Source: Candidatus Levyibacteriota bacterium (lineage in GTDB: Bacteria > Patescibacteriota > Microgenomatia > Levybacterales > UBA12049). Taken from it: DNA of 64,000 nucleotides. The stretch is from contig PLZJ01000002.1 of assembly GCA_003152105.1 (NCBI GenBank), positions 172,257-236,256 on the forward strand. The letters are read 5' to 3'. Positions 19,356-45,466 of the stretch are shown here, piece after piece. The number at the start of each line of letters is the position of its first letter. Position 1 is the first letter of the stretch. Under the pieces are notes generated by a model. That model was not told the origin of the DNA. It did not search any database and worked only from the letters and a program-made list of their open reading frames with translations. Made by a program: the position numbers and the translations under genes.

Positions 19356-19485
19356 TTAGAAAAGAACTATTTTATTAATAGGCATTTAATGTTTGGTATG
19401 TATTTGATTATAAATTTTAGTATATTTTTAATCAATCCATGCAAATTGATATTTCATAAGAACCCTGTGCTACAATAGCTCCTAT

Positions 19486-21243: not shown

Positions 21244-21268
21244 ACTTCATTTTTGGTATAATACATAC

Positions 21269-30355: not shown

Positions 30356-30383
30356 GTTTCTAACATCCTCTACTCCTGCGAGC
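30356..30383 (+). repeat. cassette-boundary repeat R1
   Basis: GTTTCTAACATCCTCTACTCCTGCGAGC. Confidence 0.8.
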
Positions 30384-30400
30384 TTTTATTTGGATACTTA

Positions 30401-30781
30401 TTACACAGTCTTTTGTAATATTATCAGAGGTGCTTTACCTAGTCTTTCTTCAGCTATATCGGCGAACCTTCTGCTTCTCTCCAAGACTGAAAGTGAATCA
30501 TTTCCAATATCGGTACTAAGTATATAGCCAGCTTGAGTTAGATTAATAGGTTCTTGATCTTCTCCTACTTCTCGTTCTTCTACAACTTTAGCCTCTATTC
30601 CAACCTCATTACCATAATGTACATAATCTATGGCTACATGATAAGACATCCTTATGGTCCTTGCAGTTTCTTCATCAACTAATTCTTTTGTTCCAGATGT
30701 CAAATCGATTTTATCAATAGGTCCCTCAAAGAAGTCTGGCGAATAGATAGATCTATAATATTGGGTTTCAGCATGACTCAT
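30401..30781 (-). CDS. cassette gene: hypothetical protein
   Basis: ORF between R1 and R2; TATAAT 8 nt upstream of its ATG. Confidence 0.45.
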   Translation of the reverse strand: MSHAETQYYRSIYSPDFFEGPIDKIDLTSGTKELVDEETARTIRMSYHVAIDYVHYGNEVGIEAKVVEEREVGEDQEPINLTQAGYILSTDIGNDSLSVLERSRRFADIAEERLGKAPLIILQKTV

Positions 30782-30808
30782 ATAATTGCAGTATTATACC
30801 ATGAGACA

Positions 30809-30835
30809 AGTTCTAACATCCTCCACTCCTGCGAG
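30809..30835 (+). repeat. cassette-boundary repeat R2
   Basis: GTTCTAACATCCTCCACTCCTGCGAGC. Confidence 0.85.
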
Positions 30836-30876
30836 CAATATTAGTGTTAAATTAGAGGAATTTATTTTTCAAGAAG

Positions 30877-31521
30877 TTATTGATAGCCTTCCCAATGGCC
30901 ATCTGAAAATCCTCTAATCCTAGGATGTGTTGAGAATTTATACCCCTCTTGATAGTAAAAATTTAAATCACACCAAAATACTATTTCGGAATTATGATTA
31001 ATATAGTAATACCCATTTCTTAATGCCTTTACAGTCCATCCTGAACTTGCCATCGTCGAAGTATTTGAATTATTTCCATCACAGACAAGACCAGGATAAT
31101 TATGTTGTCCTGTATAAGGATTTGGCCTATTAGCAAATTTAACCGTAGAGTTTTTATTATTGTAGTTAAACGCAAAATCTATTTGACTATAATTTCCTAC
31201 ATAGTTAAGGTTCAAAAAATATTTTGATGGTGGATTTGGAGTATAAGCTGAAAAATAAGTGTCATAAATATATCCAGTAGTACTTGTTTGAGATTGAGTG
31301 CTTGCACTTATTTTAGAAAAATCCATCGGTTCGCCTAGAGGAGGAAGAGATTCTTTATTGCTATTTATAGATATTGGCATAACTGTTGGTTCAAATCCTG
31401 CTGCATTTTGTTGTGTTTGGTGAGATATATTTACTCCCCACACAGTTAATGGTACCGCTACAACAAGTGCTGCAATTACTAAATAACCAAGAAAACTTGA
31501 ATTCTTCTTACTTTTAGCCAT
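30877..31521 (-). CDS. cassette gene: secreted or membrane-anchored protein
   Basis: N-terminal TM helix; Asn/Tyr-rich. Confidence 0.45.
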   Translation of the reverse strand: MAKSKKNSSFLGYLVIAALVVAVPLTVWGVNISHQTQQNAAGFEPTVMPISINSNKESLPPLGEPMDFSKISASTQSQTSTTGYIYDTYFSAYTPNPPSKYFLNLNYVGNYSQIDFAFNYNNKNSTVKFANRPNPYTGQHNYPGLVCDGNNSNTSTMASSGWTVKALRNGYYYINHNSEIVFWCDLNFYYQEGYKFSTHPRIRGFSDGHWEGYQ

Positions 31522-31578
31522 ACGCTTATACCTCTACAATAATAAATATAGGATTATATGTCAAGAGCTGAGATTAAA

Positions 31579-31606
31579 GGTTCTAACATCCTCCACTCTT
31601 GCGAGC
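31579..31606 (+). repeat. cassette-boundary repeat R3
   Basis: GGTTCTAACATCCTCCACTCTTGCGAGC. Confidence 0.85.
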
Positions 31607-31667
31607 ACCTCTTTAGCCTCAAAATAGTCTTTTTTAGCCTCACATGAGGAGAATAGGATTCGTACCC
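31607..31667 (+). repeat. long junction extension (L-type) after R3
   Basis: ACCTCTTTAGCCTCAAAATAGTCTTTTTTAGCCTCACATGAGGAGAATAGGATTCGTACC. Shares AGCCTCAAAATAGTC...TTTTAGCCTC...GAGGAGA.TAGGATT.GAAC with 6 other junctions. Confidence 0.7.
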
Positions 31668-31678
31668 TGTTTTGATAC

Positions 31679-32323
31679 TTGAATGGACTTAGTTTAAAAT
31701 TTCATATTGCATTTAAATCAAAATATACATATAATCCTAACGCTATTATGAGTGTAGAAATTACAAGACCAATTGACCCAAGATACCAAGCAAAGCTAGG
31801 TGAAGCATCTGTTCCAGGCTGGATTGGCCTAGGTGAGAGACTTCAATTGGGGAACTTAGAGCCATATAGAGTGGCAAATCAAAGGCCAAAAGAAGGAGAA
31901 GGTAAAGTAGGCTTTGTAGTTCCGTTTGAAGTGGAGGAATTAGGTAAAGGAGAGATAAGACTTGTAGAAATAGAAAGCTCACAGGAGCAAATTGATGGTA
32001 TTCCAGTAGAGCTTATAGGTGATTATGGAACAGAGTATGGAGTTTTTATAACTTTAAATGAAGTGGGTTTTCCTCAAGTTCCAGAAGTTTGGCTATATCA
32101 TCCTCATAGACCAAGATTTATTGCAGAAGTTCGGACTGATAAAACTGACGACCCACTTGTAAAAACAGCTAATGTTGACAATATTTGGAAAGATATAGAT
32201 GATATAAGTCGTAAACTTGCAATTAGAGAATCTGATCTTCCACTTATAATGTTTGGAATACAACAAGAATGGTCAACCGACACAACAACTCCTGGTAAAA
32301 AACCTCAAATGTGGCAAGACTAA
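31679..32323 (+). CDS. cassette gene: hypothetical protein
   Basis: ORF between R3 and R4. Confidence 0.45.
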   Translation: MNGLSLKFHIAFKSKYTYNPNAIMSVEITRPIDPRYQAKLGEASVPGWIGLGERLQLGNLEPYRVANQRPKEGEGKVGFVVPFEVEELGKGEIRLVEIESSQEQIDGIPVELIGDYGTEYGVFITLNEVGFPQVPEVWLYHPHRPRFIAEVRTDKTDDPLVKTANVDNIWKDIDDISRKLAIRESDLPLIMFGIQQEWSTDTTTPGKKPQMWQD

Positions 32324-32335
32324 GTGAATAACCAT

Positions 32336-32362
32336 GTTCTAACTTCCTCCACTCCTGCGAGC
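32336..32362 (+). repeat. cassette-boundary repeat R4
   Basis: GTTCTAACTTCCTCCACTCCTGCGAGC. Confidence 0.85.
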
Positions 32363-32438
32363 TTTTTCATACAAAACTTATAAATTAATTAACTATCTTG
32401 ATGTTAACATTGTTTCTGCTATACTTATTTATCAAATT

Positions 32439-32774
32439 ATGAATCCAGAATTTGAGTTCAATAGACAGGTAGCCATAAATAAGGAAGCATTAAAGCAAGG
32501 AATTACTCTTGAAGATAAATTAAAACAAGTTATAAAAGTTGGGGAAGGTGAGCAAAACCCAAACATGCGCTTAGATGATCCATATATAGTTATAGGTGCG
32601 TTAGGCGTACGCAATGGAAGTATGTGTATATTTGGAACATTTCAAACTGTAGAAGAAGCTTTAGACTTTAGGACAATACTACGTGTTAGAGAAGATCAAT
32701 TAGTTACCGATGGACAAACCGAAAGAATGGCAGTATTTGCCTGTAATAGAAAAGGATTCTTACTTATTGATTAA
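32439..32774 (+). CDS. cassette gene: hypothetical protein
   Basis: ORF between R4 and R5. Confidence 0.45.
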   Translation: MNPEFEFNRQVAINKEALKQGITLEDKLKQVIKVGEGEQNPNMRLDDPYIVIGALGVRNGSMCIFGTFQTVEEALDFRTILRVREDQLVTDGQTERMAVFACNRKGFLLID

Positions 32775-32777
32775 AAT

Positions 32778-32805
32778 AGGGTTCTAATTTCGTAAGTTCC
32801 AGAAC
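32778..32805 (+). repeat. degenerate repeat remnant
   Basis: GGGTTCTAATTTCGTAAGTTCCAGAAC; only the 5' GGTTCTAA part is conserved. Confidence 0.35.
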
Positions 32806-32837
32806 TAAATTTACCACTTTAGAGGCAAAAAGATATA

Positions 32838-32863
32838 TTCTAACAACCTCCACTCCTTTGAGC
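32838..32863 (+). repeat. cassette-boundary repeat R5
   Basis: TTCTAACAACCTCCACTCCTTTGAGC. Confidence 0.75.
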
Positions 32864-32869
32864 AGCAAA

Positions 32870-33775
32870 TCAATTATATTTTATTTCATCTAATACTTCT
32901 GCTACTTTCATAGGACTATGCCATGCAGTATCTCCATGATCTTCAATGCGATAAATAATTGATAACATAGTTTGTACAAAACTCCATTGTAAAATTCTAT
33001 TTCTTTCAAAGTTTAATTCATCAGCAAGTATTTCTATACGTTTAATTAATATTTCTTTAAGGTTTGTTTTTTTTGCCAGAGTAGGATACGGATTTCGCAT
33101 CATAGCTCCTGTTTCAAAACATGGATCTCCAACAATTCCATTTGGATCAATTGCGAGCCACCCTTCACGATCAGATGATAAGATATTACCCTGGTGTAAA
33201 TCACCATGCATAACAACTATATTTGACGTAGAGCTAATTAAACCATTTAGCATAAATTCAGTCTTATCTAGTAAATATAGAGAGAGTGGGTTATTAGATC
33301 CAGAAAATCTTTTTTTATATTTAGGTATATGACTAGAAAGCTCTGATACAAGTTTAAAATCATGTTTTTCTGGAACTTTTCTACTAATTCTTTTTATTAT
33401 CGAAGCTAGGATTTTGGTTTGTGTTTCATCCTCACTAAGTTTATTTAATCTTTTGCCAGGTACAGCTTGTTCAAGTAGCATTGTCATATTTTCATCATTG
33501 CTACTTATCAAATTTATGCTACCTTCACCATTAAAAAGTTTTAATGCTGCAACTTCTGATAAATAGCCCTCGTTACCTGGGAAATCTATTTTTATTACTA
33601 ACTTATCTCCAGTATTTCTAGTTGCTGGAGCTACATAGTTGTATGACAAATCATAGGGTTTTCCTATTTTTAAATTCCAATCTTTTTCAAAATATGTTAA
33701 CAGATTTGGTATATTATCTAACCATTCTTGTCCTCCAGTACGATTTTTTATGTCGTGTAAAAAATTCTGGTTCAT
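32870..33775 (-). CDS. cassette gene: aminoglycoside/small-molecule phosphotransferase (APH) family kinase
   Basis: Catalytic loop HGDLHQGNIL and IDPNG...GDPCFE, typical of the APH/choline kinase fold. Confidence 0.6.
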   Translation of the reverse strand: MNQNFLHDIKNRTGGQEWLDNIPNLLTYFEKDWNLKIGKPYDLSYNYVAPATRNTGDKLVIKIDFPGNEGYLSEVAALKLFNGEGSINLISSNDENMTMLLEQAVPGKRLNKLSEDETQTKILASIIKRISRKVPEKHDFKLVSELSSHIPKYKKRFSGSNNPLSLYLLDKTEFMLNGLISSTSNIVVMHGDLHQGNILSSDREGWLAIDPNGIVGDPCFETGAMMRNPYPTLAKKTNLKEILIKRIEILADELNFERNRILQWSFVQTMLSIIYRIEDHGDTAWHSPMKVAEVLDEIKYN

Positions 33776-33804
33776 AGCTACAAGTATATCATTCCCAGAA
33801 TCTG

Positions 33805-33832
33805 GGTTCTTACGTCCTCAACGCCTGCGAGC
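33805..33832 (+). repeat. cassette-boundary repeat R6
   Basis: GGTTCTTACGTCCTCAACGCCTGCGAGC. Confidence 0.75.
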
Positions 33833-33875
33833 TTAAATATTTGTAAAAGTTAATAACATATGATAATATCCACGC

Positions 33876-34235
33876 ATGACTGAATTTGAACCTATACCCG
33901 GCAATGAGCCTCAAGTTGAACCAACCCTTGAGGATTTATTAATATCAAGAAAAGCTATATCTTGTCAAATACCTCAATCTGAGCTTATTGATTATACCCA
34001 GGCAGGAGAAAAAACAGGTACTACTGTAACAATTATTGCACAGCAAGGAGAAATGTTTAAACACTATAACAGCGGTAAAAGATGGAATTTGGAACCTATT
34101 TGGGGAGAACATCTCATACATGAGCAAGAAGGAATAGAAGATGTAAGGGTATCTGAAGGAAATATTGCGATTGCTATTCAAAGATCCCAGGACAATAATG
34201 ATCTTGGAGCTTTTTGGAGAAAATTAAAAGCATAA
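33876..34235 (+). CDS. cassette gene: hypothetical protein
   Basis: ORF between R6 and R7. Confidence 0.45.
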   Translation: MTEFEPIPGNEPQVEPTLEDLLISRKAISCQIPQSELIDYTQAGEKTGTTVTIIAQQGEMFKHYNSGKRWNLEPIWGEHLIHEQEGIEDVRVSEGNIAIAIQRSQDNNDLGAFWRKLKA

Positions 34236-34238
34236 AAC

Positions 34239-34265
34239 GTTCTAACATCCTCCACTCCAGCAAGC
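34239..34265 (+). repeat. cassette-boundary repeat R7
   Basis: GTTCTAACATCCTCCACTCCAGCAAGC. Confidence 0.8.
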
Positions 34266-34325
34266 AACTATCCAGCCTCAAATTAGTCTTTTTTAGCATT
34301 GCTTGAGAAAAGTAGAATAAGAACC
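34266..34325 (+). repeat. long junction extension (L-type) after R7
   Basis: AACTATCCAGCCTCAAATTAGTCTTTTTTAGCATTGCTTGAGAAAAGTAGAATAAGAACC. Confidence 0.65.
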
Positions 34326-34346
34326 TTAGTTTGATATACTAGTCTT

Positions 34347-34772
34347 ATGAAAAACACAATTTTTCTTGCCTCAAGCATGGATTTCTACAAAGAACTAGTT
34401 GAAATTGAAAAGCAATTGGAGTTAAAAGGATTTAAAGTAGATATTCCATATTCTGCTCAAACAATGAAGAAAAATAATGATTTTGAGGTTGCACACTTTA
34501 AAGGAGTTTTTACACATAAACAAAAAGGAGGATTTATTCATAGTAATTTTGATAAGATTGCTAAATCTGATTCACTTTTAGTTATTAATAATGATAAAAA
34601 GGGAATTAAGGGATATATTGGTACAAATGTACTGATGGAAATAGCAATTGCATTTTACTTTAAGAAAAATATTTATATTTTGAACCCAATTGAAGATAAC
34701 GCATCATTTACAGAAGAATTATTCGCTTTTGGAGTCAAGTTTATTAATGGAGACTTAGATAATGTTAGTTAA
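34347..34772 (+). CDS. cassette gene: hypothetical protein
   Basis: ORF between R7 and R8; GATATACT promoter-like box upstream. Confidence 0.45.
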   Translation: MKNTIFLASSMDFYKELVEIEKQLELKGFKVDIPYSAQTMKKNNDFEVAHFKGVFTHKQKGGFIHSNFDKIAKSDSLLVINNDKKGIKGYIGTNVLMEIAIAFYFKKNIYILNPIEDNASFTEELFAFGVKFINGDLDNVS

Positions 34773-34779
34773 GTAATAT

Positions 34780-34806
34780 GTTCTAATTTCCTCCACTCCT
34801 GCGAGC
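34780..34806 (+). repeat. cassette-boundary repeat R8
   Basis: GTTCTAATTTCCTCCACTCCTGCGAGC. Confidence 0.85.
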
Positions 34807-34818
34807 AAATTTATCTAG

Positions 34819-35448
34819 TTGACAACCTTTCAATTGTTATTCATATTATTAATAATGCCAAAGTTTAAATCAAAAAGTACAAATAAAAAAGGCTCTTATG
34901 ATCTATTTAATAAACACAAAAATCTTAAATGGTTAATCCCTATTTTAATTTTAGCTTTTCTTTTTCTGCTTTTTGTTCATCATGCCAGAGAAGAACTGGG
35001 AGTTAATATGGATACTTCAGTATATATATCTCACAATAAACAATTAAACGTAGCAAACTGGCAAACATATACAGATTTAACTAATGGTTTTAGTTTTAAA
35101 TATCCAGATAATTGGATTAAAGTTGATGATCCTACAACTGAAAATGGACCACAGGTTAGTTTTTTTCTTAAAACTGACCCTCAAATAGTTACTACAGAAA
35201 CTATTAATGGTACTGAACAGCTTATGTTAAATGTTGTGCCTGATTCTGATACCATACAAAGTTTACTACAAGAATTCCCTCACTATATAAATATTAATGG
35301 CAAGGAAGCAGCATGTGACGTATCTCCTACTAAAATATACTGTAATGTAAAACTTAATAAATCAACGCTATTAATATTACAAAGTCCTCGTTCCGATGGA
35401 GTTAAAAATTTTGCACTTATAACAACTTCGTTTATTTTTAGTCACTAA
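34819..35448 (+). CDS. cassette gene: membrane-anchored extracytoplasmic protein
   Basis: N-terminal TM helix (LIPILILAFLFLLFV). Confidence 0.45.
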   Translation: MTTFQLLFILLIMPKFKSKSTNKKGSYDLFNKHKNLKWLIPILILAFLFLLFVHHAREELGVNMDTSVYISHNKQLNVANWQTYTDLTNGFSFKYPDNWIKVDDPTTENGPQVSFFLKTDPQIVTTETINGTEQLMLNVVPDSDTIQSLLQEFPHYININGKEAACDVSPTKIYCNVKLNKSTLLILQSPRSDGVKNFALITTSFIFSH

Positions 35449-35455
35449 TTTGACA

Positions 35456-35483
35456 GATTCTAACGTACTCCACTCCTGCGAGC
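35456..35483 (+). repeat. cassette-boundary repeat R9
   Basis: GATTCTAACGTACTCCACTCCTGCGAGC. Confidence 0.85.
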
Positions 35484-35487
35484 TTCA

Positions 35488-35847
35488 TTATTGGGCTAAT
35501 TTACTTTTAAAATAAGCTTTTAGTGAATCTTGATCTTCTCCAGGAGCAATAGGAGGGGGAGCACCATTTGGGGGAACTTCTAAATCTCTATGAAAAGATT
35601 TAGGTAATATATCACTTGGTAAAGTCATTATGTCATCAATGTTAGGTAATATTGTATCAAGTTCTCCAACTTGTCTTGCAGGTAATGTTACTTCTTGTCC
35701 TCGTACTAATATTGTTGCAGTTCCCTTAAATACGCTTGTTCTTGCTAGTTGTCCTATTTCTCCTTTATTTGTATGAATGCTACCATTAGTTCCCTTCATT
35801 GTTAAAGCATCAAATCTATTTGCTATTGCTTCAACTATTCTGCTCAT
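35488..35847 (-). CDS. cassette gene: hypothetical protein
   Basis: ORF between R9 and R10. Confidence 0.45.
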   Translation of the reverse strand: MSRIVEAIANRFDALTMKGTNGSIHTNKGEIGQLARTSVFKGTATILVRGQEVTLPARQVGELDTILPNIDDIMTLPSDILPKSFHRDLEVPPNGAPPPIAPGEDQDSLKAYFKSKLAQ

Positions 35848-35888
35848 AAACTCTATTATATAACTTCTTATTAAACAATCAAGTAATA

Positions 35889-35916
35889 GGTTCTAACGTC
35901 CTCCTTTCCTGCGAGC
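35889..35916 (+). repeat. cassette-boundary repeat R10
   Basis: GGTTCTAACGTCCTCCTTTCCTGCGAGC. Confidence 0.85.
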
Positions 35917-35976
35917 AACTACTCAGCCTCAAAATAGTCTTTTTTAGCATCTCTGGAGGAGACTAGGATTAGAAAC
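35917..35976 (+). repeat. long junction extension (L-type) after R10
   Basis: AACTACTCAGCCTCAAAATAGTCTTTTTTAGCATCTCTGGAGGAGACTAGGATTAGAAAC. Its right arm is an inverted imperfect copy of GTTCTAACGTCCTCC. Confidence 0.7.
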
Positions 35977-35995
35977 TTCTGATATAATACACCTC

Positions 35996-36415
35996 ATGGA
36001 TTCAGAAAGAGAGCAAGTTAAACCTACTCGAAAACCTTATGATCCTGCTGAGTTAAGTTATGAAGCTAAGTTTGATTTTGACCAGATGACTCGAGAGGAT
36101 TTAGTAAAAGCTAGGTATAACGGGCCCAATAGTAAATCAATAACTGATGCTGATCATAATCCTATTGAAATGTTAGATTTAAGATTTGGGTGGCATGTGC
36201 TTAGTTTAAGATCACCTGAATTTGATGGAAAACCTGATGCTTCTGCAGAATCATATATAGATATTACAGACCAATTTAGAGGTTTTAAGCTAAAAGGATT
36301 ACCAGAGCTTATAGATGATGGTCATAAAGCTAGATTCCAGCTTATTGGGTCAGAAGGAGAAGTTTTACAAATAGATACCCCTTCTTATGGTTATGTTAGA
36401 GGATATGACATGTAG
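35996..36415 (+). CDS. cassette gene: hypothetical protein
   Basis: ORF with GATATAAT 8 nt upstream. Confidence 0.45.
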   Translation: MDSEREQVKPTRKPYDPAELSYEAKFDFDQMTREDLVKARYNGPNSKSITDADHNPIEMLDLRFGWHVLSLRSPEFDGKPDASAESYIDITDQFRGFKLKGLPELIDDGHKARFQLIGSEGEVLQIDTPSYGYVRGYDM

Positions 36416-36417
36416 CG

Positions 36418-36445
36418 GGTTCTAACGTCCTCCACTCCTGCAAAC
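36418..36445 (+). repeat. cassette-boundary repeat R11 (3' end diverged)
   Basis: GGTTCTAACGTCCTCCACTCCTGCAAAC. Confidence 0.8.
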
Positions 36446-36454
36446 TCAACAAAT

Positions 36455-36490
36455 CAAAAAAAACTCACTTACATAGTTAACCAAGGGGAG
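36455..36490 (+). repeat. motif B copy 1
   Basis: AAAACTCACTTACATAGTTAACCAAGGGGAGCTTAG; second copy at 47305-47337. Confidence 0.5.
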
Positions 36491-36497
36491 CTTAGTA

Positions 36498-37046
36498 TTA
36501 TCTAAACTTACCAATCTTAGCTATTTCAACTAATTTAGCCCAAGGTACATGAAAAGTAGTCGAAACATTAGTTAATTCAGGGAAACCCATTGCTCTAAAT
36601 CTACTAATCCATACATCGTAACTAGTGTTGAGTTCTGAGGTTTTTAATCTTGGCAATTTATTCTGCATTAAAACTTCTCTGGCTTCATCCAAACTTACGG
36701 CTGAACTTGTGTTTACCATTAAAGAATCATAGGCAAGTATACCAGCTGCAATATCTTCTATCTTTTTCCTGGTTTCTCCTAGTTTTGCATCTTCATTTTC
36801 TCCACCCATAATATGTAGTCTTGCAAGCTGAGGCTTACTTAACATATCATGCCAATCTAGCCATAAAATATCTTCCTGAGTTTGGCCATGATCTACAGAA
36901 GCCAAATGAGTAGTTATGCCATAATCTATGGCAAGAGGTGATAATCCCATATGCCATTGTCTGTCACCGCTTTCAAACGAATGATTTAAATGTTGGACTA
37001 TTTCAATGGGACCTTGTGAGTCAAATTCCATGCCTGAATCAGTCAT
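36498..37046 (-). CDS. cassette gene: hypothetical protein
   Basis: ORF between R11 and R12. Confidence 0.45.
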   Translation of the reverse strand: MTDSGMEFDSQGPIEIVQHLNHSFESGDRQWHMGLSPLAIDYGITTHLASVDHGQTQEDILWLDWHDMLSKPQLARLHIMGGENEDAKLGETRKKIEDIAAGILAYDSLMVNTSSAVSLDEAREVLMQNKLPRLKTSELNTSYDVWISRFRAMGFPELTNVSTTFHVPWAKLVEIAKIGKFR

Positions 37047-37070
37047 AAAAGTATTGTAGCATAATATGTA

Positions 37071-37094
37071 TTAACACCCTCCACTCCTGCGAGC
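37071..37094 (+). repeat. cassette-boundary repeat R12 (5' end degenerate)
   Basis: TTAACACCCTCCACTCCTGCGAGC. Confidence 0.75.
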
Positions 37095-37154
37095 AACTAT
37101 CTAGCCTCAAAACAGTCATTTTTAGCCTCGTTGGAGGAGACTAGATTAGAACCT
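37095..37154 (+). repeat. long junction extension (L-type) after R12
   Basis: AACTATCTAGCCTCAAAACAGTCATTTTTAGCCTCGTTGGAGGAGACTAGATTAGAACC. Confidence 0.7.
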
Positions 37155-37174
37155 TCTGGTATAATAGCAACCAA

Positions 37175-37684
37175 ATGTCAAAAGAAATACCAACCCAAAA
37201 CCCGTTAGATCAAGCGTACGAAGAAAAACCAAAAAGATGGTATGAAAATCAAGTATTTGGAAATGGTTTACTCTTCAATAGCGCTCTTGTTTCAAGTAAT
37301 ATAGCTTATATTGCATTTATACACAATTATTCATCATTAACACGACTTGCAGGTGCATCTGTTTATATATTAAGTACTATCGCCGATAGATTAAGTACCT
37401 ATAGGGCTTTAAACAGTATTAAAGAGGCAAAAGATAGCGGAATTGAAGTAATTCATAAGGAACAAAATCCTTTATTAGTTAGTAAAGAGAACCCGCTTAA
37501 GTTGGAAAAACCAACAAAAATCCATGTTGGAAATTTGATAGGCTTAGGTTTGTCAACCCTTACGCTAGGTTCTGCAATGCCAATTTCAGCATACCAATTA
37601 GTTTATGCTGCAAACAATGAGAGAATTAATAGACGATACAGAAGAGCTATATGTATTTTTAGTGCTAGTCAAAATCGGGAATAG
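37175..37684 (+). CDS. cassette gene: hypothetical protein
   Basis: ORF with GGTATAAT upstream. Confidence 0.45.
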   Translation: MSKEIPTQNPLDQAYEEKPKRWYENQVFGNGLLFNSALVSSNIAYIAFIHNYSSLTRLAGASVYILSTIADRLSTYRALNSIKEAKDSGIEVIHKEQNPLLVSKENPLKLEKPTKIHVGNLIGLGLSTLTLGSAMPISAYQLVYAANNERINRRYRRAICIFSASQNRE

Positions 37685-37722
37685 AATCATTAGGTATATA
37701 ATTAGCCTACATTAACGGAATT

Positions 37723-37749
37723 GTTCTAACATCCCCAACTCCTGCGAGC
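37723..37749 (+). repeat. cassette-boundary repeat R13
   Basis: GTTCTAACATCCCCAACTCCTGCGAGC. Confidence 0.8.
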
Positions 37750-37780
37750 AGCTTAGCCTCATATGATATAATGCTCAATT

Positions 37781-38122
37781 ATGGGAAAAGAACAGCATCC
37801 ACTTGATGACCCTAATGTAGAGGCAGTTATACAAGGTAAGCAAAGTCCTAGTTGGCACAAATACCAAGATTCCGAAGATTTTATCGAGAAAGGCTTTCCA
37901 TTTAATGAAGGCTTTCCTAAAACAAGCCCCTTAAGTCTAGAACCATTTAATCTTATACTCAGAAATGGTGTTAGAGTAGTAGGTTATGTAGATTTCTCTA
38001 CTCAGTATAGGTCGGAAGGACTGTCATGGATGGATGAGCAGGGTCACTATCTTTCAAGTTATACAGTTGTTGGTTGGCAAAAGCAAGGAGATCCAATTGG
38101 CTTCGGTACTCAACAAAAGTAA
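37781..38122 (+). CDS. cassette gene: hypothetical protein
   Basis: ORF with GATATAAT upstream; its stop TAA is immediately followed by R14. Confidence 0.45.
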   Translation: MGKEQHPLDDPNVEAVIQGKQSPSWHKYQDSEDFIEKGFPFNEGFPKTSPLSLEPFNLILRNGVRVVGYVDFSTQYRSEGLSWMDEQGHYLSSYTVVGWQKQGDPIGFGTQQK

Positions 38123-38150
38123 GTTCTAACATTTCTCCACTCCTGTGAGC
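38123..38150 (+). repeat. cassette-boundary repeat R14
   Basis: GTTCTAACATTTCTCCACTCCTGTGAGC. Confidence 0.8.
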
Positions 38151-38151
38151 C

Positions 38152-38856
38152 TCATTTAATGAATCTAAATGTATTAGCCATTTGATAAAGAGTTTGTTCG
38201 TAGTTAGGAATATCACTAGAATTTGCAGTTAAGTTTTCGTAACCTATAATTACAGCAGATGCATTCCCATCAGAAGAGTATGTTGTTGGTTTAACTACAT
38301 AGTAAATAAATTTTTGACCGTTTTGACTACTTCCATCTCCTGCAACAAATCCTGTTAATTTTCTCATTTGGTATCCATTAAGGTTAATAGTTGAAGAATT
38401 TACTATATTATCGCATTCGGCTTTACATTGTTCAGGATCCCATTCTATGGTTGTAAAAAAATAAGGACTTTTATAATAATTATCAGAATTTGCCAGTTTG
38501 ATTGTAAAAAACATGGTGCCAGGAAAATCTCTTTTTATTACATAAAGGTTTGGAGAATATTCGATTTGATATTTAAACTCATCATTTGCAGCATAGATAT
38601 TCCAACCCGTGCTTTCATCAATTGTAATTAGTGGTGTTGGTGTGATACTTGCTGTTTTGTTAATAGGATTTGATTTTATATTGGTTATATTACTTAATGT
38701 TGTAGGATTTAAGGTATTAAGCTGTTGATATTTCATGCCGATTAAAAATCCTACTAATGGAAAAACAATAAACAAGATTATGGCTAAAGTTTTAGATAGA
38801 GGAGTAATAGTTGTTAGATTTTTAGGTAGAGTCATATTTAAACTATAGTTTAGCAA
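38152..38856 (-). CDS. cassette gene: membrane-anchored extracytoplasmic protein
   Basis: N-terminal TM helix (LAIILFIVFPLVGFLIGM). Confidence 0.45.
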   Translation of the reverse strand: MLNYSLNMTLPKNLTTITPLSKTLAIILFIVFPLVGFLIGMKYQQLNTLNPTTLSNITNIKSNPINKTASITPTPLITIDESTGWNIYAANDEFKYQIEYSPNLYVIKRDFPGTMFFTIKLANSDNYYKSPYFFTTIEWDPEQCKAECDNIVNSSTINLNGYQMRKLTGFVAGDGSSQNGQKFIYYVVKPTTYSSDGNASAVIIGYENLTANSSDIPNYEQTLYQMANTFRFIK

Positions 38857-38873
38857 CTAGATATGGTCAAGTA

Positions 38874-38901
38874 GGTTCCAACATCCTCCACTCCTGCGAG
38901 C
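38874..38901 (+). repeat. cassette-boundary repeat R15
   Basis: GGTTCCAACATCCTCCACTCCTGCGAGC. Confidence 0.85.
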
Positions 38902-38942
38902 TCCATCTTGATTAAAATAACCAATTGTGAAATAGTATTGGT

Positions 38943-39569
38943 ATGGATCCAAATACTGCTCAACCTTCTCAGTCAGTAAATCAAAAAACACCACCAATTA
39001 ATGAGCCACAATTTCTTTCAAAACATTTTTCATTTACTCGAATCTTACTAATATTATTGATTACTCTTATTTCAGCGTTTCTATTTGGAACAATAGGGTA
39101 TTTCATAGGGAAATATTCAAGTTCTCAGTCCTCAGACATACAGTATACTTTTACAAAATCTCAACCAATTAAACCTTCTCCAACTTTTATATCAATAACA
39201 CCTAGCGTTTCACCATCGCAAACCCCTGCTGAAACCTCAGGTTTATCTGGCATAGATAGCTCAACTCCTCAAGATTTTGCAACTTATATTACAGCTTTCT
39301 ATAAACAAAAACAAGCTAGTTGCGATATTGAAGAAATATCCGTAGATAATTCTAAAATAATTAGAGATAGTTTTGCTGAGACACAGGAAGGTTGTGGAAC
39401 TGGATGGATAGGATTCTACGCAAAGGTAAATGGATCTTGGGTTGAAGCATTTACTGCTCAGGGAACACCAACTTGTGCTACGGTAAATAAATATTTTTAT
39501 ACTAAAGAACTAATTCCTGATTGTACGGTTAATCCACAAATTTCTCCAATTCCAAATACTAACCCCTAA
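38943..39569 (+). CDS. cassette gene: membrane-anchored protein; N-terminus paralogous to 47386-48207
   Basis: EPQFLSKHFSFTRILLILLITLISAFLFGTIGYFIGKYSSSQSS versus EPKFISKHFNFKRVLLVLLVVLITASIFSAIGYLLGISQSSSS in 47386-48207. Confidence 0.5.
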   Translation: MDPNTAQPSQSVNQKTPPINEPQFLSKHFSFTRILLILLITLISAFLFGTIGYFIGKYSSSQSSDIQYTFTKSQPIKPSPTFISITPSVSPSQTPAETSGLSGIDSSTPQDFATYITAFYKQKQASCDIEEISVDNSKIIRDSFAETQEGCGTGWIGFYAKVNGSWVEAFTAQGTPTCATVNKYFYTKELIPDCTVNPQISPIPNTNP

Positions 39570-39600
39570 TTACCATATTCAAATTCTAAAATAAAGATAA

Positions 39601-39627
39601 GTTCTAAAGTACTCCACTCCTGCGAGC
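39601..39627 (+). repeat. cassette-boundary repeat R16
   Basis: GTTCTAAAGTACTCCACTCCTGCGAGC. Confidence 0.85.
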
Positions 39628-39677
39628 TCGTCTTAATCTCATTAACTTTGCTTCTGGTATACTAAATCCATATCATT

Positions 39678-40475
39678 ATGCTTGATATATTCTTGGTAAA
39701 ACTACTGTTAACCTTTATAGTTGCAAGTATTTTTATAACTGCTAATACAATACTTGCCGAAAAAGTAAGTCCTAAAATAGTCGGATTCATAGGAGGAATA
39801 CCAAATACAGTTTTAATCTCACTACTTTTTATTGGAATTACCCAATCTCCTTTAATTTCTTCTCAATCAACTACTGTAATTCCAATTATTATGGGAATTG
39901 ATGCATTATTTATTGTTATTTATGTCTATTTATCAAAATATAGTTTCCTTGTAGGATTTTTATCTGCCTTACTAGTGTGGTTTGTCTTAGTTAGTATTCT
40001 TGTGTTTATTAAGTTTAACAACTTTAGTCTATCATTAGCAGCCTTATTAATACTTATGGTTCTTAGTTACTTCTTAGTTGAACATGTTATTAAGACAAAA
40101 ACTATCTATAACAAAAAGTATAAGTTTTCACTAGCAAACATTATATTTAGAGGTGTCTTTAGTGGAACAATAGTTACTTTAGTAGTTATATTTGCAAAAA
40201 TAGGAGGGCCACTTTTTGGTGGCATAGGTGCTTCTTTCCCAGCAGCAATGATCTCAACTATGATAATCACAAATAGAGCTCAAGGAATTGAGTTTTCTAG
40301 ATCAGTAATGAAAATATTAATGATTTCAGGCCCTGTAAATGTAGCTGTATATGCAACAGCAGTTAGATTTCTTTATCCTGAATACGGCTTACTTTTAGGA
40401 ACAATATATTCACTACTTATTGCATTAATATCCACCTATTTGACCTACAAGTTCGTTGTAAAAAGAGTTGCCTGA
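39678..40475 (+). CDS. cassette gene: polytopic membrane protein
   Basis: About 8 TM helices. Confidence 0.45.
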   Translation: MLDIFLVKLLLTFIVASIFITANTILAEKVSPKIVGFIGGIPNTVLISLLFIGITQSPLISSQSTTVIPIIMGIDALFIVIYVYLSKYSFLVGFLSALLVWFVLVSILVFIKFNNFSLSLAALLILMVLSYFLVEHVIKTKTIYNKKYKFSLANIIFRGVFSGTIVTLVVIFAKIGGPLFGGIGASFPAAMISTMIITNRAQGIEFSRSVMKILMISGPVNVAVYATAVRFLYPEYGLLLGTIYSLLIALISTYLTYKFVVKRVA

Positions 40476-40494
40476 AGTTTTATAATGCCAAGTA

Positions 40495-40522
40495 GGTTCT
40501 AACGTCCTCCACTCCTGCGAGC
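40495..40522 (+). repeat. cassette-boundary repeat R17
   Basis: GGTTCTAACGTCCTCCACTCCTGCGAGC (exact consensus). Confidence 0.9.
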
Positions 40523-40551
40523 TTCAAAATACCTCATGATATAATTAATTC

Positions 40552-41025
40552 ATGGTAGAGCAATCTAGTGCAAATGAAAGAATATCTCCAGCTATTCGTC
40601 CTATGACCCTGGATGATGTTAATGAAGTCTATATTATTGGCTCATCAACTCCAGAGTTTTCAGCAGGAGATGCAGCAACATTTTGGGAAAGAGATGAACT
40701 TGAAAGATGGGTTACTCTGGGAGTAGATGATGTCTTACTGATAGCTGAAGTGAATGGACAAATAGGAGGATTTTTACTAGCAAAATACCATGTGCCAACA
40801 AAATTAGGTGCAATTCATGACGTATTTACTAAACCAGAATTTAGACGAAATGGGGTAGCAGAAGCACTTGAGGAAGAAGCTATACTTCAATTAACTCAAA
40901 AAGGGGCAACTTATATCTATTCCGTTACTCAACATGATAATCAAGCATCTATGAACCTTCAAGAAAAAGTAGGCTTTAAAAAAGGAAAACTTATGCAATG
41001 GTTTGAATTAGAACCCGAGAGATAA
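40552..41025 (+). CDS. cassette gene: GNAT family N-acetyltransferase
   Basis: 157 aa; acetyl-CoA-binding-like FRRNGVAEALEEEAI; GATATAAT upstream. Confidence 0.55.
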   Translation: MVEQSSANERISPAIRPMTLDDVNEVYIIGSSTPEFSAGDAATFWERDELERWVTLGVDDVLLIAEVNGQIGGFLLAKYHVPTKLGAIHDVFTKPEFRRNGVAEALEEEAILQLTQKGATYIYSVTQHDNQASMNLQEKVGFKKGKLMQWFELEPER

Positions 41026-41083
41026 ATGTTTTAACTTAGTGGGTTCTCAAACGAATCGCACCAATATGCAAACAATAAAGTTT

Positions 41084-41195
41084 TAACTTGCATCTTCTTT
41101 ATCTCCTCCCACCTCTGTCTAAGTTCTCCAAAGTAGCGTAAATCCTGGAACACAAGGATAATTGAGGTCAAATCTACGGTTATAATAAGATAAGG
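41084..41195 (+). repeat. element C copy 1 (about 110 nt conserved non-coding module)
   Basis: AACTTGCATCTTCTTTATCTCCTCCCACCTCTGTCTAAGTTCTCCAAAGTAGCGTAAATCCTGGAACAC...GGTTATAATAAGAT; second copy at 49855-49960 with about 75 percent identity. Confidence 0.5.
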
Positions 41196-41269
41196 CTCGG
41201 GGAGCTGGGTAGGATGATTAGTTTAGCTTCGTTTAACAACCCAAATTATTGATTTGATATAATCTTTTA

Positions 41270-41914
41270 ATGATTCTTTTTATTGGTGGACCACCTAGAG
41301 TAGGCAAAGGAGTTTTAACAAGAAATTTAAGTAAAAAACTTGGAATTCCATATATTTCTACTGACGCACTCCGTCAAGCAGCTAGAGAACTTCCTGCAAT
41401 ACCCAAAACCGACAATTTATTTAAATCAGAACCCCTAGGTGAAGGAGATAACCAAGAAGAATTTTTCAATAATACAAAGGTAGAAGATATTATTGATTTT
41501 CAAAATAAGGAATCTGAAGAAGTAGCAAGACTTGTTAAGGGTATAGTAGGATATTTCAGTTGGAGTAAAGAGCATTACATCATAGAAGGGGTAGCACTTT
41601 TACCTCGATATTATACCTCAGAATTTATCAAGGAAAATAATATTATCTTTATAGCTGTTGGAAATACTAATTTTGACACATTTTTTAAATTTTCATGGGA
41701 CCATAGAGTTAATGGCGATTGGTTAGGAAAGACAAGTAAGGAAGCATTTGAAAAAGTAATTAAATTTAGTGCTGAATTCAGTAAAATCTTCCAAAATGAA
41801 GCCAATAAGTTTGGCTATCCATATTATGAAGTTAATTCAAAAGATTTTAATAACCATATGACAACTATAACTGAGGAAATTGTAAAGAAGATTAGAAATA
41901 TAGATAGGTTCTAA
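41270..41914 (+). CDS. cassette gene: P-loop NTPase / kinase
   Basis: Walker A GGPPRVGKGV; the stop TAA lies inside R18. Confidence 0.5.
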   Translation: MILFIGGPPRVGKGVLTRNLSKKLGIPYISTDALRQAARELPAIPKTDNLFKSEPLGEGDNQEEFFNNTKVEDIIDFQNKESEEVARLVKGIVGYFSWSKEHYIIEGVALLPRYYTSEFIKENNIIFIAVGNTNFDTFFKFSWDHRVNGDWLGKTSKEAFEKVIKFSAEFSKIFQNEANKFGYPYYEVNSKDFNNHMTTITEEIVKKIRNIDRF

Positions 41915-41933
41915 CATCCTCCACTCCTGCGGC
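41907..41933 (+). repeat. cassette-boundary repeat R18
   Basis: GGTTCTAACATCCTCCACTCCTGCGGC. Confidence 0.85.
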
Positions 41934-42039
41934 ACGATAATGTAACATCAAGATAAGCCCTTTGTATTAATCTAAATGAAATATTTGAACCTTCTAGAAA
42001 CTTCTTAAAGTTTAGTTTAGTATGTTATACTAACAGATA

Positions 42040-42780
42040 ATGCTCAAACAACTTTACTTAGTTACATTTACTTTACTCATCTTTTTCGTTTCACTTTTTG
42101 TCTATATAAAAATTGCTGGTCCGCTTCCGTTTTCAGTTAATTCAGTGACTACATCTAAATCAACAACTTTTGATGTAAGCGGAGAGGGAAAAGTAACTAT
42201 ACAACCAGATGGGGCAAATATTTCTGCAGGAGTCATGGCAAATGGAGCAAGCGTACAACAAGTACAAACTCAGATGAACACGATTATAAACAAAGTCTCC
42301 TCCTCCGAAAAATCATTGGGAATTGACCCAAAAGATATACAAACTGCACAATATAGTGTTACTCCTATATATGATTATTCACTAGGCAGCCAAAATATAA
42401 ACGGATACAGTGCCACGACAACGCTTACCATCAAAGTCCGTGATATTACCAAAATAAACAGCAGTATTGATGCCGCAACAGCAGCTGGAGCAACAAATGT
42501 AGATAATCTTGGTTTTACAAATAGTGATACAACGGTTGCGGAAAACCAAGCAAGAAAGATTGCAGTTGCACAGGCGAAGAAAAAAGCAGAGGATGCCGCA
42601 AGTATAGCGGGATTTTCCTTAGGTAATATTGTTAATTATAGTGAAAATTTTGGAGGTACTCCTCGTATTATGCCACTTAACGCAGAAAATGCTAATATAG
42701 GGAGCGCTCCTGTTACTAAACTTGAACCGGGATCAAATGAAGTACAAGTTGATGTGACTCTAAGTTATGAAATCAGATAA
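42040..42780 (+). CDS. cassette gene: SIMPL-domain (DUF541) secreted protein
   Basis: N-terminal TM helix, then TFDVSGEGKVTIQPDGANISAGV...VQQVQTQMN, typical of SIMPL/26 kDa periplasmic immunogenic protein. Confidence 0.5.
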   Translation: MLKQLYLVTFTLLIFFVSLFVYIKIAGPLPFSVNSVTTSKSTTFDVSGEGKVTIQPDGANISAGVMANGASVQQVQTQMNTIINKVSSSEKSLGIDPKDIQTAQYSVTPIYDYSLGSQNINGYSATTTLTIKVRDITKINSSIDAATAAGATNVDNLGFTNSDTTVAENQARKIAVAQAKKKAEDAASIAGFSLGNIVNYSENFGGTPRIMPLNAENANIGSAPVTKLEPGSNEVQVDVTLSYEIR

Positions 42781-42794
42781 CAACTTAGTTCTCA

Positions 42795-42872
42795 GGTTCT
42801 AAATTGAATCACACCATTTAAAAGTTAATAACTACTTAATTTTCCAAGCTCTATAATCCTCCACACTGCGAG
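42795..42872 (+). repeat. split or degenerate repeat (GGTTCTAA ... about 55 nt ... ATCCTCCACACTGCGAG)
   Basis: Both halves of the consensus present but separated. Confidence 0.4.
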
Positions 42873-42919
42873 TTTGATAGGATTGTAAATTTAGCCTCAT
42901 TTTACAATCTATTTATTGA

Positions 42920-43639
42920 TTAAATAGTTTCTGCTTCTTTCCACCATTCTTCAAATAATTGAGAAAGTATTGCAGCAAATGGGGGATAGGTAATCTTTAT
43001 ACCCATATCTTTTTCGGATTCAGAATGCTTATATGACATAAAATATATGGCTTCAGAGTCATAAATCATAAGTCTTATATGTTTCAAGGCTGATTTTTTA
43101 ACTAAAATTCCATTTTGCTTCCAGTTAGCAACCTGATCAGCATTTTCGCCTGAGTAATCCTGTATTAGCATTCTAGTAATAATGCCTCTCTTTTTCGCCT
43201 CAATAATAGACAACATTGTTTCAGGAGGAATTTCATGTCCAGAACGAAGTAAATCTATTGATTTTACTGTTTTATCTGCTTCTATTGCTGAGATTTTCAT
43301 TAACTCATCACGGCTTTGAATAAAATTAAAGGACAATGGATCAATCTTAGATATCTCATTATTAGGAACTGTACCTAAATTTTCTCTAAATTCCTTTGAA
43401 AACCATTTATTTTGATGTAAGAGAAAAAGCGATAATCCGTCATTAATCGGCTTAGCCATAAATTGAGAAGGATAGCTAGAAGACTTGGCAATTAAACCTA
43501 AATTTAAGAGTTCCTCAGTCAGCCTATATACCACGGTAGGTATCAGCTTAAGCTGTATTGCTAGCTCTCTTGCGTAAAGCGGCCTAGATGTTTTGAGTAG
43601 CACCTTATATATTTCTTGAGCTTGCGGACTCATAGCCAT
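42920..43639 (-). CDS. cassette gene: TrmB-like HTH transcriptional regulator
   Basis: N-terminal winged helix (YARELAIQLKLIPTVVYRLTEELLNLGLI), about 240 aa. Confidence 0.45.
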   Translation of the reverse strand: MAMSPQAQEIYKVLLKTSRPLYARELAIQLKLIPTVVYRLTEELLNLGLIAKSSSYPSQFMAKPINDGLSLFLLHQNKWFSKEFRENLGTVPNNEISKIDPLSFNFIQSRDELMKISAIEADKTVKSIDLLRSGHEIPPETMLSIIEAKKRGIITRMLIQDYSGENADQVANWKQNGILVKKSALKHIRLMIYDSEAIYFMSYKHSESEKDMGIKITYPPFAAILSQLFEEWWKEAETI

Positions 43640-43697
43640 AAGAAGGGTAGTTTAGCATTTTTTTGCTAAAGTATCAAATTTATAGATAATTCTATTT

Positions 43698-44849
43698 ATG
43701 ATAGAAGGTCAACCTTTAGAAGGTATTTTTCTTAATCAAAAAAGAGATAGTCTGTTTCAGCAGGCTGAGCGTGAACTTAGACATGAAGTTAGCATTTATC
43801 GTTTAAAAGATAGATTTGAAGGTTTGCCTAATAATCTAGGAAATATAACTATGCTTGATGCCTCCAATATCCCAGGTTGTCACTATGGTGTTAGAAATGT
43901 GTTTGTGCCTATTATTCATCACTTAGAAGAAGTAGGATTTTCAGTTAAAGATAAGTATGTTGATATCAATCCTGACACAACGATTCTAGTTGAGCCTAGC
44001 ACAGGTAATAGTTGGGTAGCTTTTAGCGATGCGGCTGAGATGTTAGGATATGAGCATATTGTAGTTATGCCTGAAGGTTTGCCTGAGAGTAGGTATAGGC
44101 ATCCAAACGGAAGACCAGTTAAAATTCTAAGAACTCCAAAAGAAGAATACGCTGAAGGCATGCCTAAACAGCTTCAATCTTTAATCATGCAAAACCGAAG
44201 AAGGATAGCTTTGGGTCAAAAAATATATATCACACCTAATCATCCAATTAGCTCTGCAGATATAACTGTAAAAGCAATGGCTGATTTGGGTCGTCAGTTG
44301 GCAGCAAAATTACAAGGCAAGGCTTTTACATTCGTAGGCTCTATGGGTAATGGTGCGAGTATTTGTTCTATAGGTGAATATTTAAAGGAAAACACTGATG
44401 ATGCAAGAGTAATAGCCACAGAATCGTTTAATTATGGTGGAGGATATGATTGGTATGCGAATACGCATAGGAAACCAAGCTATAAAAAATTATATGGAAT
44501 TGATCCAGGAAATCCAATACTTATGAAGCAGTTTGATGCTTTTGGGACTAACGCACCAATAGGTATAGAGCTTCCTCTTCAGAAAAGAGCTATAGAAGGA
44601 GGCTTACTAGATGATTATTCATTATTTACTACACAAGCTACTTTTGATGTTTATAAGTCAATTCCAGGTTTAAGTCAAGAACAGATTAATAATGCATCAA
44701 GTCTTCCTAATCGCAATAAACTACCTCAGTCTTTATATGAAGCATATGGAAACTCCACCTTAGCTAATATAGAAGTTGCATCACAATACACTAATGAAGA
44801 AAGAGAAATAGTTGCAATAGCTTATGATTCGCGAAAGGCGTATTCGTAA
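43698..44849 (+). CDS. cassette gene: PLP-dependent enzyme, cysteine synthase/tryptophan synthase-beta fold
   Basis: GFSVKDKYV (PLP-Lys region like SVKDR), then EPSTGNSWVAFSDAAEMLGYEHIVVMPE matching the fold-type II pattern. Confidence 0.5.
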   Translation: MIEGQPLEGIFLNQKRDSLFQQAERELRHEVSIYRLKDRFEGLPNNLGNITMLDASNIPGCHYGVRNVFVPIIHHLEEVGFSVKDKYVDINPDTTILVEPSTGNSWVAFSDAAEMLGYEHIVVMPEGLPESRYRHPNGRPVKILRTPKEEYAEGMPKQLQSLIMQNRRRIALGQKIYITPNHPISSADITVKAMADLGRQLAAKLQGKAFTFVGSMGNGASICSIGEYLKENTDDARVIATESFNYGGGYDWYANTHRKPSYKKLYGIDPGNPILMKQFDAFGTNAPIGIELPLQKRAIEGGLLDDYSLFTTQATFDVYKSIPGLSQEQINNASSLPNRNKLPQSLYEAYGNSTLANIEVASQYTNEEREIVAIAYDSRKAYS

Positions 44850-44854
44850 AAATA

Positions 44855-45460: not shown

Positions 45461-45466
45461 ATGCCA

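Follow-up and report, generated by a model that had tools for sequence, protein, structure and literature searches.

Comparison with described systems

Extended -10 promoters of the sigma-70 class (TGnTATAAT) are common in Gram-positive bacteria and function without a -35 element. The candidate promoters described here, from a 64,000-nucleotide stretch of bacterial DNA (the window), resemble them in having a TG one base before a near-consensus -10 hexamer and no conserved -35 region, and are unlike them in being fused to the start codon at a fixed distance of 6 nt. A comparator with a similar placement of the box is the GeneMarkS-2 "group C" of leaderless genomes, in which a Pribnow box lies 6-8 nt before the start of operon-first genes (PMC6028130). 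That paper places the Actinobacteria and Deinococcus-Thermus in this group and cites dRNA-seq studies of M. tuberculosis and D. deserti. The genes of the window share with group C units the -10 box 6-8 nt before first genes, the lack of a Shine-Dalgarno (SD) sequence and the absence of the motif at operon-internal genes, but the host is a low-GC member of the CPR/Patescibacteria (Microgenomates), the box is near full consensus and usually carries the TGn extension, and it is found at about half of the genes in the window. Searching the literature, we found neither leaderless expression nor integrons described for CPR bacteria, and we regard the novelty as moderate: a known expression architecture in a lineage for which no prior description was found, combined with a cassette array of uncertain type.

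Vibrio superintegrons carry TA cassettes. Promoters borne by cassettes have already been documented in one large chromosomal integron, that of Vibrio sp. DAT722 (PMC2945992). Arrays of the DAT722 type (PMC2945992) and the array in the window are alike in being long series of small, mostly unknown ORFs with a conserved repeat in one orientation, some inverted cassettes and internal promoters, and in the presence of TA, GNAT and aminoglycoside-kinase cassettes. They are unlike in that only a subset of the Vibrio cassettes has promoters, with expression in blocs and SD-led translation, whereas in the window array an apparent promoter sits right against the ATG of nearly every unit, a search for IntI in the window and 10 kb to either side was negative, and the repeats have neither the attC hairpin nor its consensus. 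CALINs, which are attC clusters without an integron integrase (Cury et al. 2016, as cited in PMC5737381), are similar in being cassette-like arrays with no integrase nearby, but they are defined by their attC sites, and the 27-nt repeats of the window failed every attC test run.

The window, its host and its cassette array

By an exact protein match, the window belongs to a metagenomic scaffold of 1.139 Mb (ENA ERZ28653421, WOOD18-1_SAMN07125042 scaffold_5). It has a GC content of ~33% and, together with its flanking sequence, contains dnaA, rpmH-rnpA-yidD-yidC-jag, valS, ruvCAB, dnaG and rpoD. The nearest named homologues of its ValS are from Candidatus Levybacteria (67%), Microgenomates, Parcubacteria and the "Patescibacteria group", and this, together with synteny with contig L206 (Ca. 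Levybacteria) and a second contig, L207, whose ValS proteins are only 65-70% identical to that of the window, indicates that the host is an uncultured CPR/Patescibacteria bacterium near Levybacteria (Microgenomates). The housekeeping sigma-70 factor is encoded by rpoD at 21269-22348 (NF006666, E = 1e-154). Two features of the surroundings are recorded here as observations in their own right. Genes like those of type IV secretion or conjugation (PrgI-like, TraC-like and a TraG/VirB4 P-loop) adjoin dnaN/dnaA at L210 1966-5998, which is ~4-8 kb left of window position 1. A LOOT RNA (Rfam RF03000, 64 bits, above the gathering score) at 26290-26408 precedes a Cys-rich ORF ending at 27105, and is a structured leader or sRNA within an otherwise leaderless-looking genome.

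The array extends over 30357..52210 (~22 kb) and is marked by 27 copies of a 27-nt direct repeat, GTTCTAAC-N-TCCTCCACTCCTGCGAGC, all on the plus strand, which bound units of 1-3 ORFs (24 ORFs plus, 10 minus); some of the multi-ORF units seem to hold decayed junctions. The ORFs are small and mostly unannotated, with no Pfam match for 20/32, and the remaining cassettes include APH(6), two GNATs, HicB/HicA, SIMPL and small kinases. The APH(6)-family aminoglycoside/hydroxyurea kinase gene at 32870-33775 (-) (Pfam E = 2e-31) is a seemingly self-promoted cassette in a CPR bacterium. When metagenome contigs were scanned with the repeat core CCTCCACTCCTGCGAGC, six genuine related low-GC arrays were found among chance matches (on contigs L087, L093, L094, L104, L137 and L158), while genome contigs gave single chance matches only and viral contigs gave nothing. 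Across 55 repeat copies compared, conservation begins and ends abruptly at the edges of the 27-mer.

A -10 box at a fixed distance before the start codon

A box was scored when A2 and T6 of the hexamer were kept with at most one mismatch, or with two mismatches plus a TGn, using curated starts. By this rule a box lies 5-9 nt before the start of 21/34 array ORFs and 20/48 genes outside the array, compared with 4.7% of other ATGs (n=2089; binomial p ~8e-20 for the array and ~2e-14 outside it), so that for both gene sets together 41/82 genes have a box in this class against the 4.7% background. A box at 10-14 nt is found for a further 4/34 array ORFs and 3/48 genes outside, the frequency at other ATGs being 5.1% (n=2089); spacers of this length imply short leaders and not strictly leaderless mRNAs. 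The spacer has its mode at exactly 6 nt (24/48 boxes), where the A of the ATG falls at the expected +1, which is leaderless geometry. The earlier note had claimed that every cassette has its own TATAAT box 7-15 nt upstream of the ATG. The seven examples that it quoted are all present in the sequence, and its distance corresponds to 5-14 nt when counted from the 3' end of the hexamer; "every" was slightly too strong, as the 21 array ORFs with a box at 5-9 nt and the 4 more at 10-14 nt leave exceptions, and 7/32 first-in-unit array ORFs failed the strict rule.

Seven "longest ORF" starts at TTG or GTG had been shifted to a nearby ATG, which carries a risk of circularity that was avoided by independent gene calls and by a test centred on the hexamer, which needs no choice of start codon. 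In that test, 14/108 TATAAT hexamers are followed by exactly 6 nt and an ATG opening an ORF of >=50 aa, compared with 0-1 for each of the 19 other permutations of A3T3. This result bears on the possibility that the boxes are by-products of AT-rich intergenic sequence and that a few strong promoters upstream drive read-through of the whole array. The low GC content is in keeping with that explanation, since TATAAT-like hexamers are common in such a genome and TATAAT is not over-represented overall (108 found vs 132 expected), as is the fact that the cassettes are not separated by terminators. Nevertheless, we consider it extremely improbable, because the enrichment is position-specific and at least 10-fold with a sharp 6-nt mode, because 10/34 ORFs are on the minus strand, with boxes of their own there, and lie beyond the reach of a single read-through transcript, and because the boxes are conserved across orthologues and arrays.

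When the 48 boxes are aligned, 77% have T at -3 and 60% have G at -2, which is the TGn extension (complete in 29/48), and the -35 region has no informative position. A generic scan of the array for -35/-10 pairs likewise gave no enrichment (76 found vs 84.9 expected), nor were intrinsic terminators enriched there (11 found vs 9.3 expected), with none separating cassettes; neither intrinsic terminators nor long untranslated gaps point to another arrangement. Classical two-hexamer promoters and insulation by terminators were dropped on these grounds, and the signal is present only as position-specific extended -10 boxes. The earlier note had proposed a search for -35 elements: there is no conserved -35 overall, but at four ORFs (45552, 48297(-), 50047(-) and 50433) a consensus-like -35, TTGACA or TTGACT at 17-18 nt, accompanies a weak -10.

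Genes that overlap the upstream gene or start <=5 nt from it have a box in 0/10 cases, and the motif thus stays with genes that open a transcription unit, which favors a promoter over a ribosome-binding signal acting in the mRNA. The point matters because a UAUAAU-like element could instead be a non-SD translation-initiation signal in the mRNA (compare GeneMarkS-2 group B), in which case transcripts would be leadered or polycistronic. Such an element would answer the need for another initiation signal where SD sequences are missing, and the motif lies at a distance like that of an RBS, an ambiguity noted in PMC6028130. The 10 overlapping or tightly coupled internal genes would need an RBS too, yet all are without the motif; the TGn extension and the invariant A2 and T6 are typical of sigma-70 contacts; and what precedes the motif is often a divergent gene or a non-coding junction, a setting that calls for a promoter in any case. 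We therefore judge an mRNA signal to be very unlikely and treat the boxes as putative promoters. Three good -10 boxes (61184-61189, 61683-61688 and 21257-21262) stand 5-6 nt before genes 61195, 61695 and rpoD, which themselves start only 6-25 nt past the preceding gene, and would imply internal leaderless promoters inside apparent operons.

GGAG or GAGG at -20 to -4 is found in 3/82 genes, compared with 5.7% of random windows, and in 0/48 of the box-bearing genes. An SD sequence is near-absent even at operon-internal genes, whose upstream regions are A-rich; these genes are evidently translated somehow, which counts against the view that cassettes must carry promoters. In a survey of CPR ribosomes, loss of the anti-SD is mentioned only for some Parcubacteria (PMC9297842). 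Two of the only three genes in the window with an SD motif are a large serine recombinase gene at 22483-24117 (-), which overlaps the 3' end of tRNA-Asn (22423-22495), and its neighbour at 24277-24723, which suggests a recently acquired mobile element.

Boxes of the array

Nearly all array ORFs, whichever their strand, have a box on their own strand. The boxes are given here from left to right with the coordinates of the hexamer, or of the whole element where a -35 is included, followed by the spacer; the start codon is ATG except where stated. The box that the earlier note had flagged is TGG-TATAAT at 30793..30798 (-), 11 nt from ATG 30781 of ORF 30401-30781(-). To its right are TATAAT at 31730..31735 (+; 12 nt, ORF 31748-32323), TGC-TATACT at 32420..32425 (+; 13 nt, ORF 32439-32774), TGA-TATACT at 33783..33788 (-; 7 nt, the APH(6) ORF 32870-33775(-)), GATAAT at 33862..33867 (+; 8 nt, ORF 33876-34235) and TGA-TATACT at 34335..34340 (+; 6 nt, ORF 34347-34772). 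The ORF from ATG 34855 to 35448 has TATTAT at 34844..34849 (+; 5 nt), with TTGACA 19 nt upstream of the box, and the next three ORFs have TATAAT at 35855..35860 (-; 7 nt, ORF 35488-35847(-)), TGA-TATAAT at 35983..35988 (+; 7 nt, ORF 35996-36415) and TGC-TACAAT at 37053..37058 (-; 6 nt, ORF 36498-37046(-)). These are followed by TGG-TATAAT at 37160..37165 (+; 9 nt, ORF 37175-37684), TGA-TATAAT at 37767..37772 (+; 8 nt, ORF 37781-38122), TATAGT at 38842..38847 (-; 6 nt before ATG 38835, ORF 38152-38835(-)), a weak TGA-AATAGT at 38931..38936 (+; 6 nt, ORF 38943-39569) and TGG-TATACT at 39658..39663 (+), which at 14 nt from ORF 39678-40475 would give a short leader.

In the middle of the array, TGA-TATAAT is found both at 40540..40545 (+; 6 nt, the GNAT ORF 40552-41025) and at 41258..41263 (+; 6 nt, ORF 41270-41914), and the SIMPL ORF 42040-42780 has TGT-TATACT at 42026..42031 (+; 8 nt). 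ORF 42920-43639(-) has TGC-TAAACT at 43649..43654 (-; 9 nt), ORF 43698-44849 has GATAAT at 43685..43690 (+; 7 nt), and the second GNAT ORF, 44948-45460, has TGG-TATAAT at 44936..44941 (+; 6 nt). Before ORF 45552-46136, TTGACT, 17 nt and a weak -10, TAATAT, occupy 45514..45542 (+; 9 nt). Further right are TGG-TATACT at 46686..46691 (+; 6 nt), which precedes the GTG of ORF 46698-47261 and is kept in the homologous L137 cassette; TTGACA, 17 nt and (TGT)GATAGT at 47351..47379 (+; 6 nt, ORF 47386-48207); TTGACT, 18 nt and TAGGAT at 49089..49118 (-; 6 nt, ORF 48297-49082(-)); TTGACA with a weak -10 (ACTATA/GACTAT) at 50302..50337 (-), directly before the ATG of ORF 50047-50301(-); and TTGACA, 17 nt and (TGT)AACTAT at 50396..50424 (+; 8 nt, ORF 50433-50807). 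The last two are TATAAT at 51546..51551 (-; 6 nt before ATG 51539, ORF 50847-51539(-)) and TATACT at 51653..51658 (+; 8 nt), which precedes the hicB-like ORF 51667-51942, the hicA at 51944-52168 that comes next being without a box of its own. Three ORFs are exceptions: ORF 30877-31521(-) has TATAAT at 31553..31558 (-), 31 nt before ATG 31521 with AGAGG between, and is a leadered, SD-like cassette; ORF 49260-49436 has TATAAT at 49226..49231 (+), 28 nt before ATG 49260; and ORF 46403-46588 has a weak box only.

The same box in core genes and in related genomes

The box is not peculiar to the cassettes, as the core genes of the window and their orthologues in relatives show the same box at the same distance. 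The gene that the earlier note had put forward for comparison, rpmH, itself has TGC-TATAAT at 4307..4312 (+), 9 nt before ATG 4322. Further boxes before the ATG of core genes are TGT-TAGAAT at 12063..12068 (+; 6 nt, valS), TGG-TAGAAT at 15467..15472 (-; 6 nt, ORF 14756-15460(-), an orthologue of ribosomal protein L25), TATAAT at 15504..15509 (+; 6 nt, ruvC), TGC-TATAAT at 16004..16009 (+; 9 nt, ruvA), TGC-TACAAT at 19471..19476 (+; 9 nt, dnaG) and TGG-TATAAT at 21257..21262 (+; 6 nt, rpoD). Beyond the array, TGA-TATAAT at 56984..56989 (+) is 6 nt before ATG 56996, with a like arrangement at 57652, 58572 and 61683.

Boxes are positionally conserved in the orthologous valS, L25, ruvC and ruvA of L206 and L207. 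When starts were taken from independent gene calls at six Patescibacteria loci, a box in the 5-9 nt class preceded 15-42% of the genes, compared with a background of 2-7%, and in five independent related arrays the figure is 23-26/37 ORFs. Because the same grammar is seen in core genes, related contigs and related arrays, we take the box to be a general mode of expression of the host, across the window and the sampled relatives, and not a cassette speciality. The box is more frequent in the array than outside it (25/34 vs 23/48 at 5-14 nt, Fisher p = 0.024), an excess that is expected for single-gene units.

The cassette at 46686-47291 recurs in L137 with 76% identity and with a different upstream neighbor and upstream junction; the homology starts at a TTAGAAC-like box and the -10 box and runs through the next 27-mer, the two copies having TTTG[G/A]TATACTACAA in common. 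As this homology includes the box in two array contexts, the putative promoter and the ORF are seen here as one unit. The earlier note had read the cassettes as autonomous promoter-plus-ORF modules with a very short or absent 5' UTR, and much of this holds, in that the distance is leaderless, the TGn extension is present, overlapping internal genes have no box and the box travels with the ORF where a cassette recurs in another array; what has to be given up is the restriction to cassettes, as the trait is host-wide.

Proposed mode of expression

From the motif, its fixed distance and enrichment, its conservation across orthologues and homologous cassettes, the lack of SD sequences and the presence of rpoD, all of which are read directly from the DNA, we infer promoter activity, the position of transcription start and a selective argument. 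In our judgment it is highly probable that the boxes function as promoters of the leaderless type and that they are a trait of the host as a whole. They would be extended -10 promoters (TGnTATAAT) of sigma-70 (RpoD) that need no -35, with the RpoD holoenzyme initiating 6-7 nt past the box, on the first base of the start codon (A or G) or 1-3 nt before it. The resulting mRNAs would be leaderless or near-leaderless, with ribosomes starting on the 5'-terminal AUG, and efficient translation would require an AUG that either stands at the 5' end of the mRNA or is coupled to an ORF upstream. A promoterless single-gene cassette behind an upstream promoter would then be transcribed but poorly translated, and only cassettes with an abutting promoter would be useful. 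In a host without SD-led initiation, a cassette would thus be expressed only with its own abutting promoter, which would explain why almost every unit has one, and with a promoter for each cassette neither its place in the array nor its direction would matter for expression, so that either orientation would be tolerated.

If confirmed, this would provide a concrete picture of gene expression in one uncultured CPR lineage, with extended -10 elements fused to start codons and almost no use of SD sequences. It would have consequences for where gene starts are annotated, for how expression cassettes are built for those few CPR bacteria that are genetically tractable, and for thinking about their reduced ribosomes. 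It would also describe a cassette-array architecture adapted to its host, in which a promoter at each first codon replaces one Pc feeding promoterless cassettes, and which removes the effects of position and orientation; in Proteobacteria, integron biology is governed by these two.

The junctions and the question of an integron

The earlier note had contrasted the boxes with the promoterless, Pc-dependent cassettes of integrons, a contrast that assumes an integron; no integrase was found in the window or the 10 kb to either side, and the repeats at the junctions failed the attC tests. The layout is nevertheless integron-like, with units of an ORF plus a site and 27 sites in one orientation, and the array might be a chromosomal integron whose cassettes specifically evolved individual promoters, which would make these a property of the integron and not of the host. 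Besides the 27 same-strand repeats, this explanation can draw on the small and mostly unannotated ORFs, on the APH(6), GNAT and HicAB cassettes, on the somewhat greater frequency of boxes in the array, and on ~10 junctions with an R'-like TTAGAAC, at which the homology of the one shared cassette begins. The first difficulty for it is that core genes and relatives use the same grammar, the array excess being expected for single-gene units. The second lies in the recombinase: no integron or tyrosine integrase was found by Pfam/NCBIfam among flanking ORFs, among ORFs beside related arrays, or in the 10 kb beyond either end of the window. The ORF just before the window array is unrelated to the one just before the L158 array, and homologues in other Patescibacteria of a uridine-kinase-like cassette protein lie outside any array and gave no route to an integrase.

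The third difficulty is in the sites themselves. Folding of the junctions as single-stranded DNA (long, medium and short forms, both strands) was no better than that of shuffled sequences (z ~0), and the alifold consensus of seven long junction forms reached only -8 kcal/mol with little covariation. No pairs of R'' and R' sites of the form RYYYAAC...GTTRRRY are present at any junction, no partner complementary to the 27-mer was found at the junctions above background, and Rfam gave no match there to any known RNA or DNA motif, DUF1874 (an attC-like motif) included. A right half (TGGAGGA, 8-10 nt, (A/G)TTAGAAC) is present at ~10/27 junctions, the other 17 consisting of the 27-mer alone. A search for attI or Pc found nothing recognizable beyond either end of the array (30357 and 52210), and IS elements disrupt the right end. 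We conclude that the array is integron-like in layout but is not a demonstrated integron, and that promoters evolved as an integron property are unlikely.

A sharply bounded, one-strand 27-nt repeat without attC structure or a nearby integrase may instead mark a Microgenomates cassette array with non-attC recombination. A fuller version of this reading, which we put forward tentatively and with more doubt than confidence, is that the array is a previously undescribed CPR/Microgenomates cassette platform, with a 27-bp site (possibly tRNA-derived and probably acting as dsDNA) in place of a folded attC, served by some recombinase or by homologous exchange, and with cassettes that, in a host lacking SD-dependent initiation, would be bound to express themselves as leaderless modules.

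Several further features of the junctions were observed. After some of the 27-mers there is a conserved extension of ~60 nt (31607-31665, 34266-34325, 35917-35975, 37095-37152, 46617-46680 and 52211-52256), which is also seen in a remnant at 49968-50041 and at L104 332-395. Read on the minus strand, its end resembles the T-arm and acceptor strand of a tRNA, and CTAGGTTCTAATCCTAG of L104 matches the T-arm of the window's tRNA-Asn, CTAGGTTCGAATCCTAG, at 16/17 positions; this likeness may hint at a tRNA-derived attachment site. The suggestion that the right half of the junction is itself a tRNA gene was rejected, as ARAGORN finds only the tRNA-Asn at 22423-22495. Two more families of conserved non-coding modules of ~50 nt lie beside the 27-mer or replace it, just upstream of promoters, the first at 36446-36492 and 47290-47337 and the second at 41202-41265, 42866-42911 and 44875-44921, with further copies in L158, L087 and L093. 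Right after the last repeat is a transposase-like ORF, 52307-52990, which has no family match and is IS481-like by eye; it is apparently interrupted by an IS3-like element (rve domain, 53472-54125), the whole spanning 52307-54125, and these insertions may have destroyed what was originally the right end of the array.
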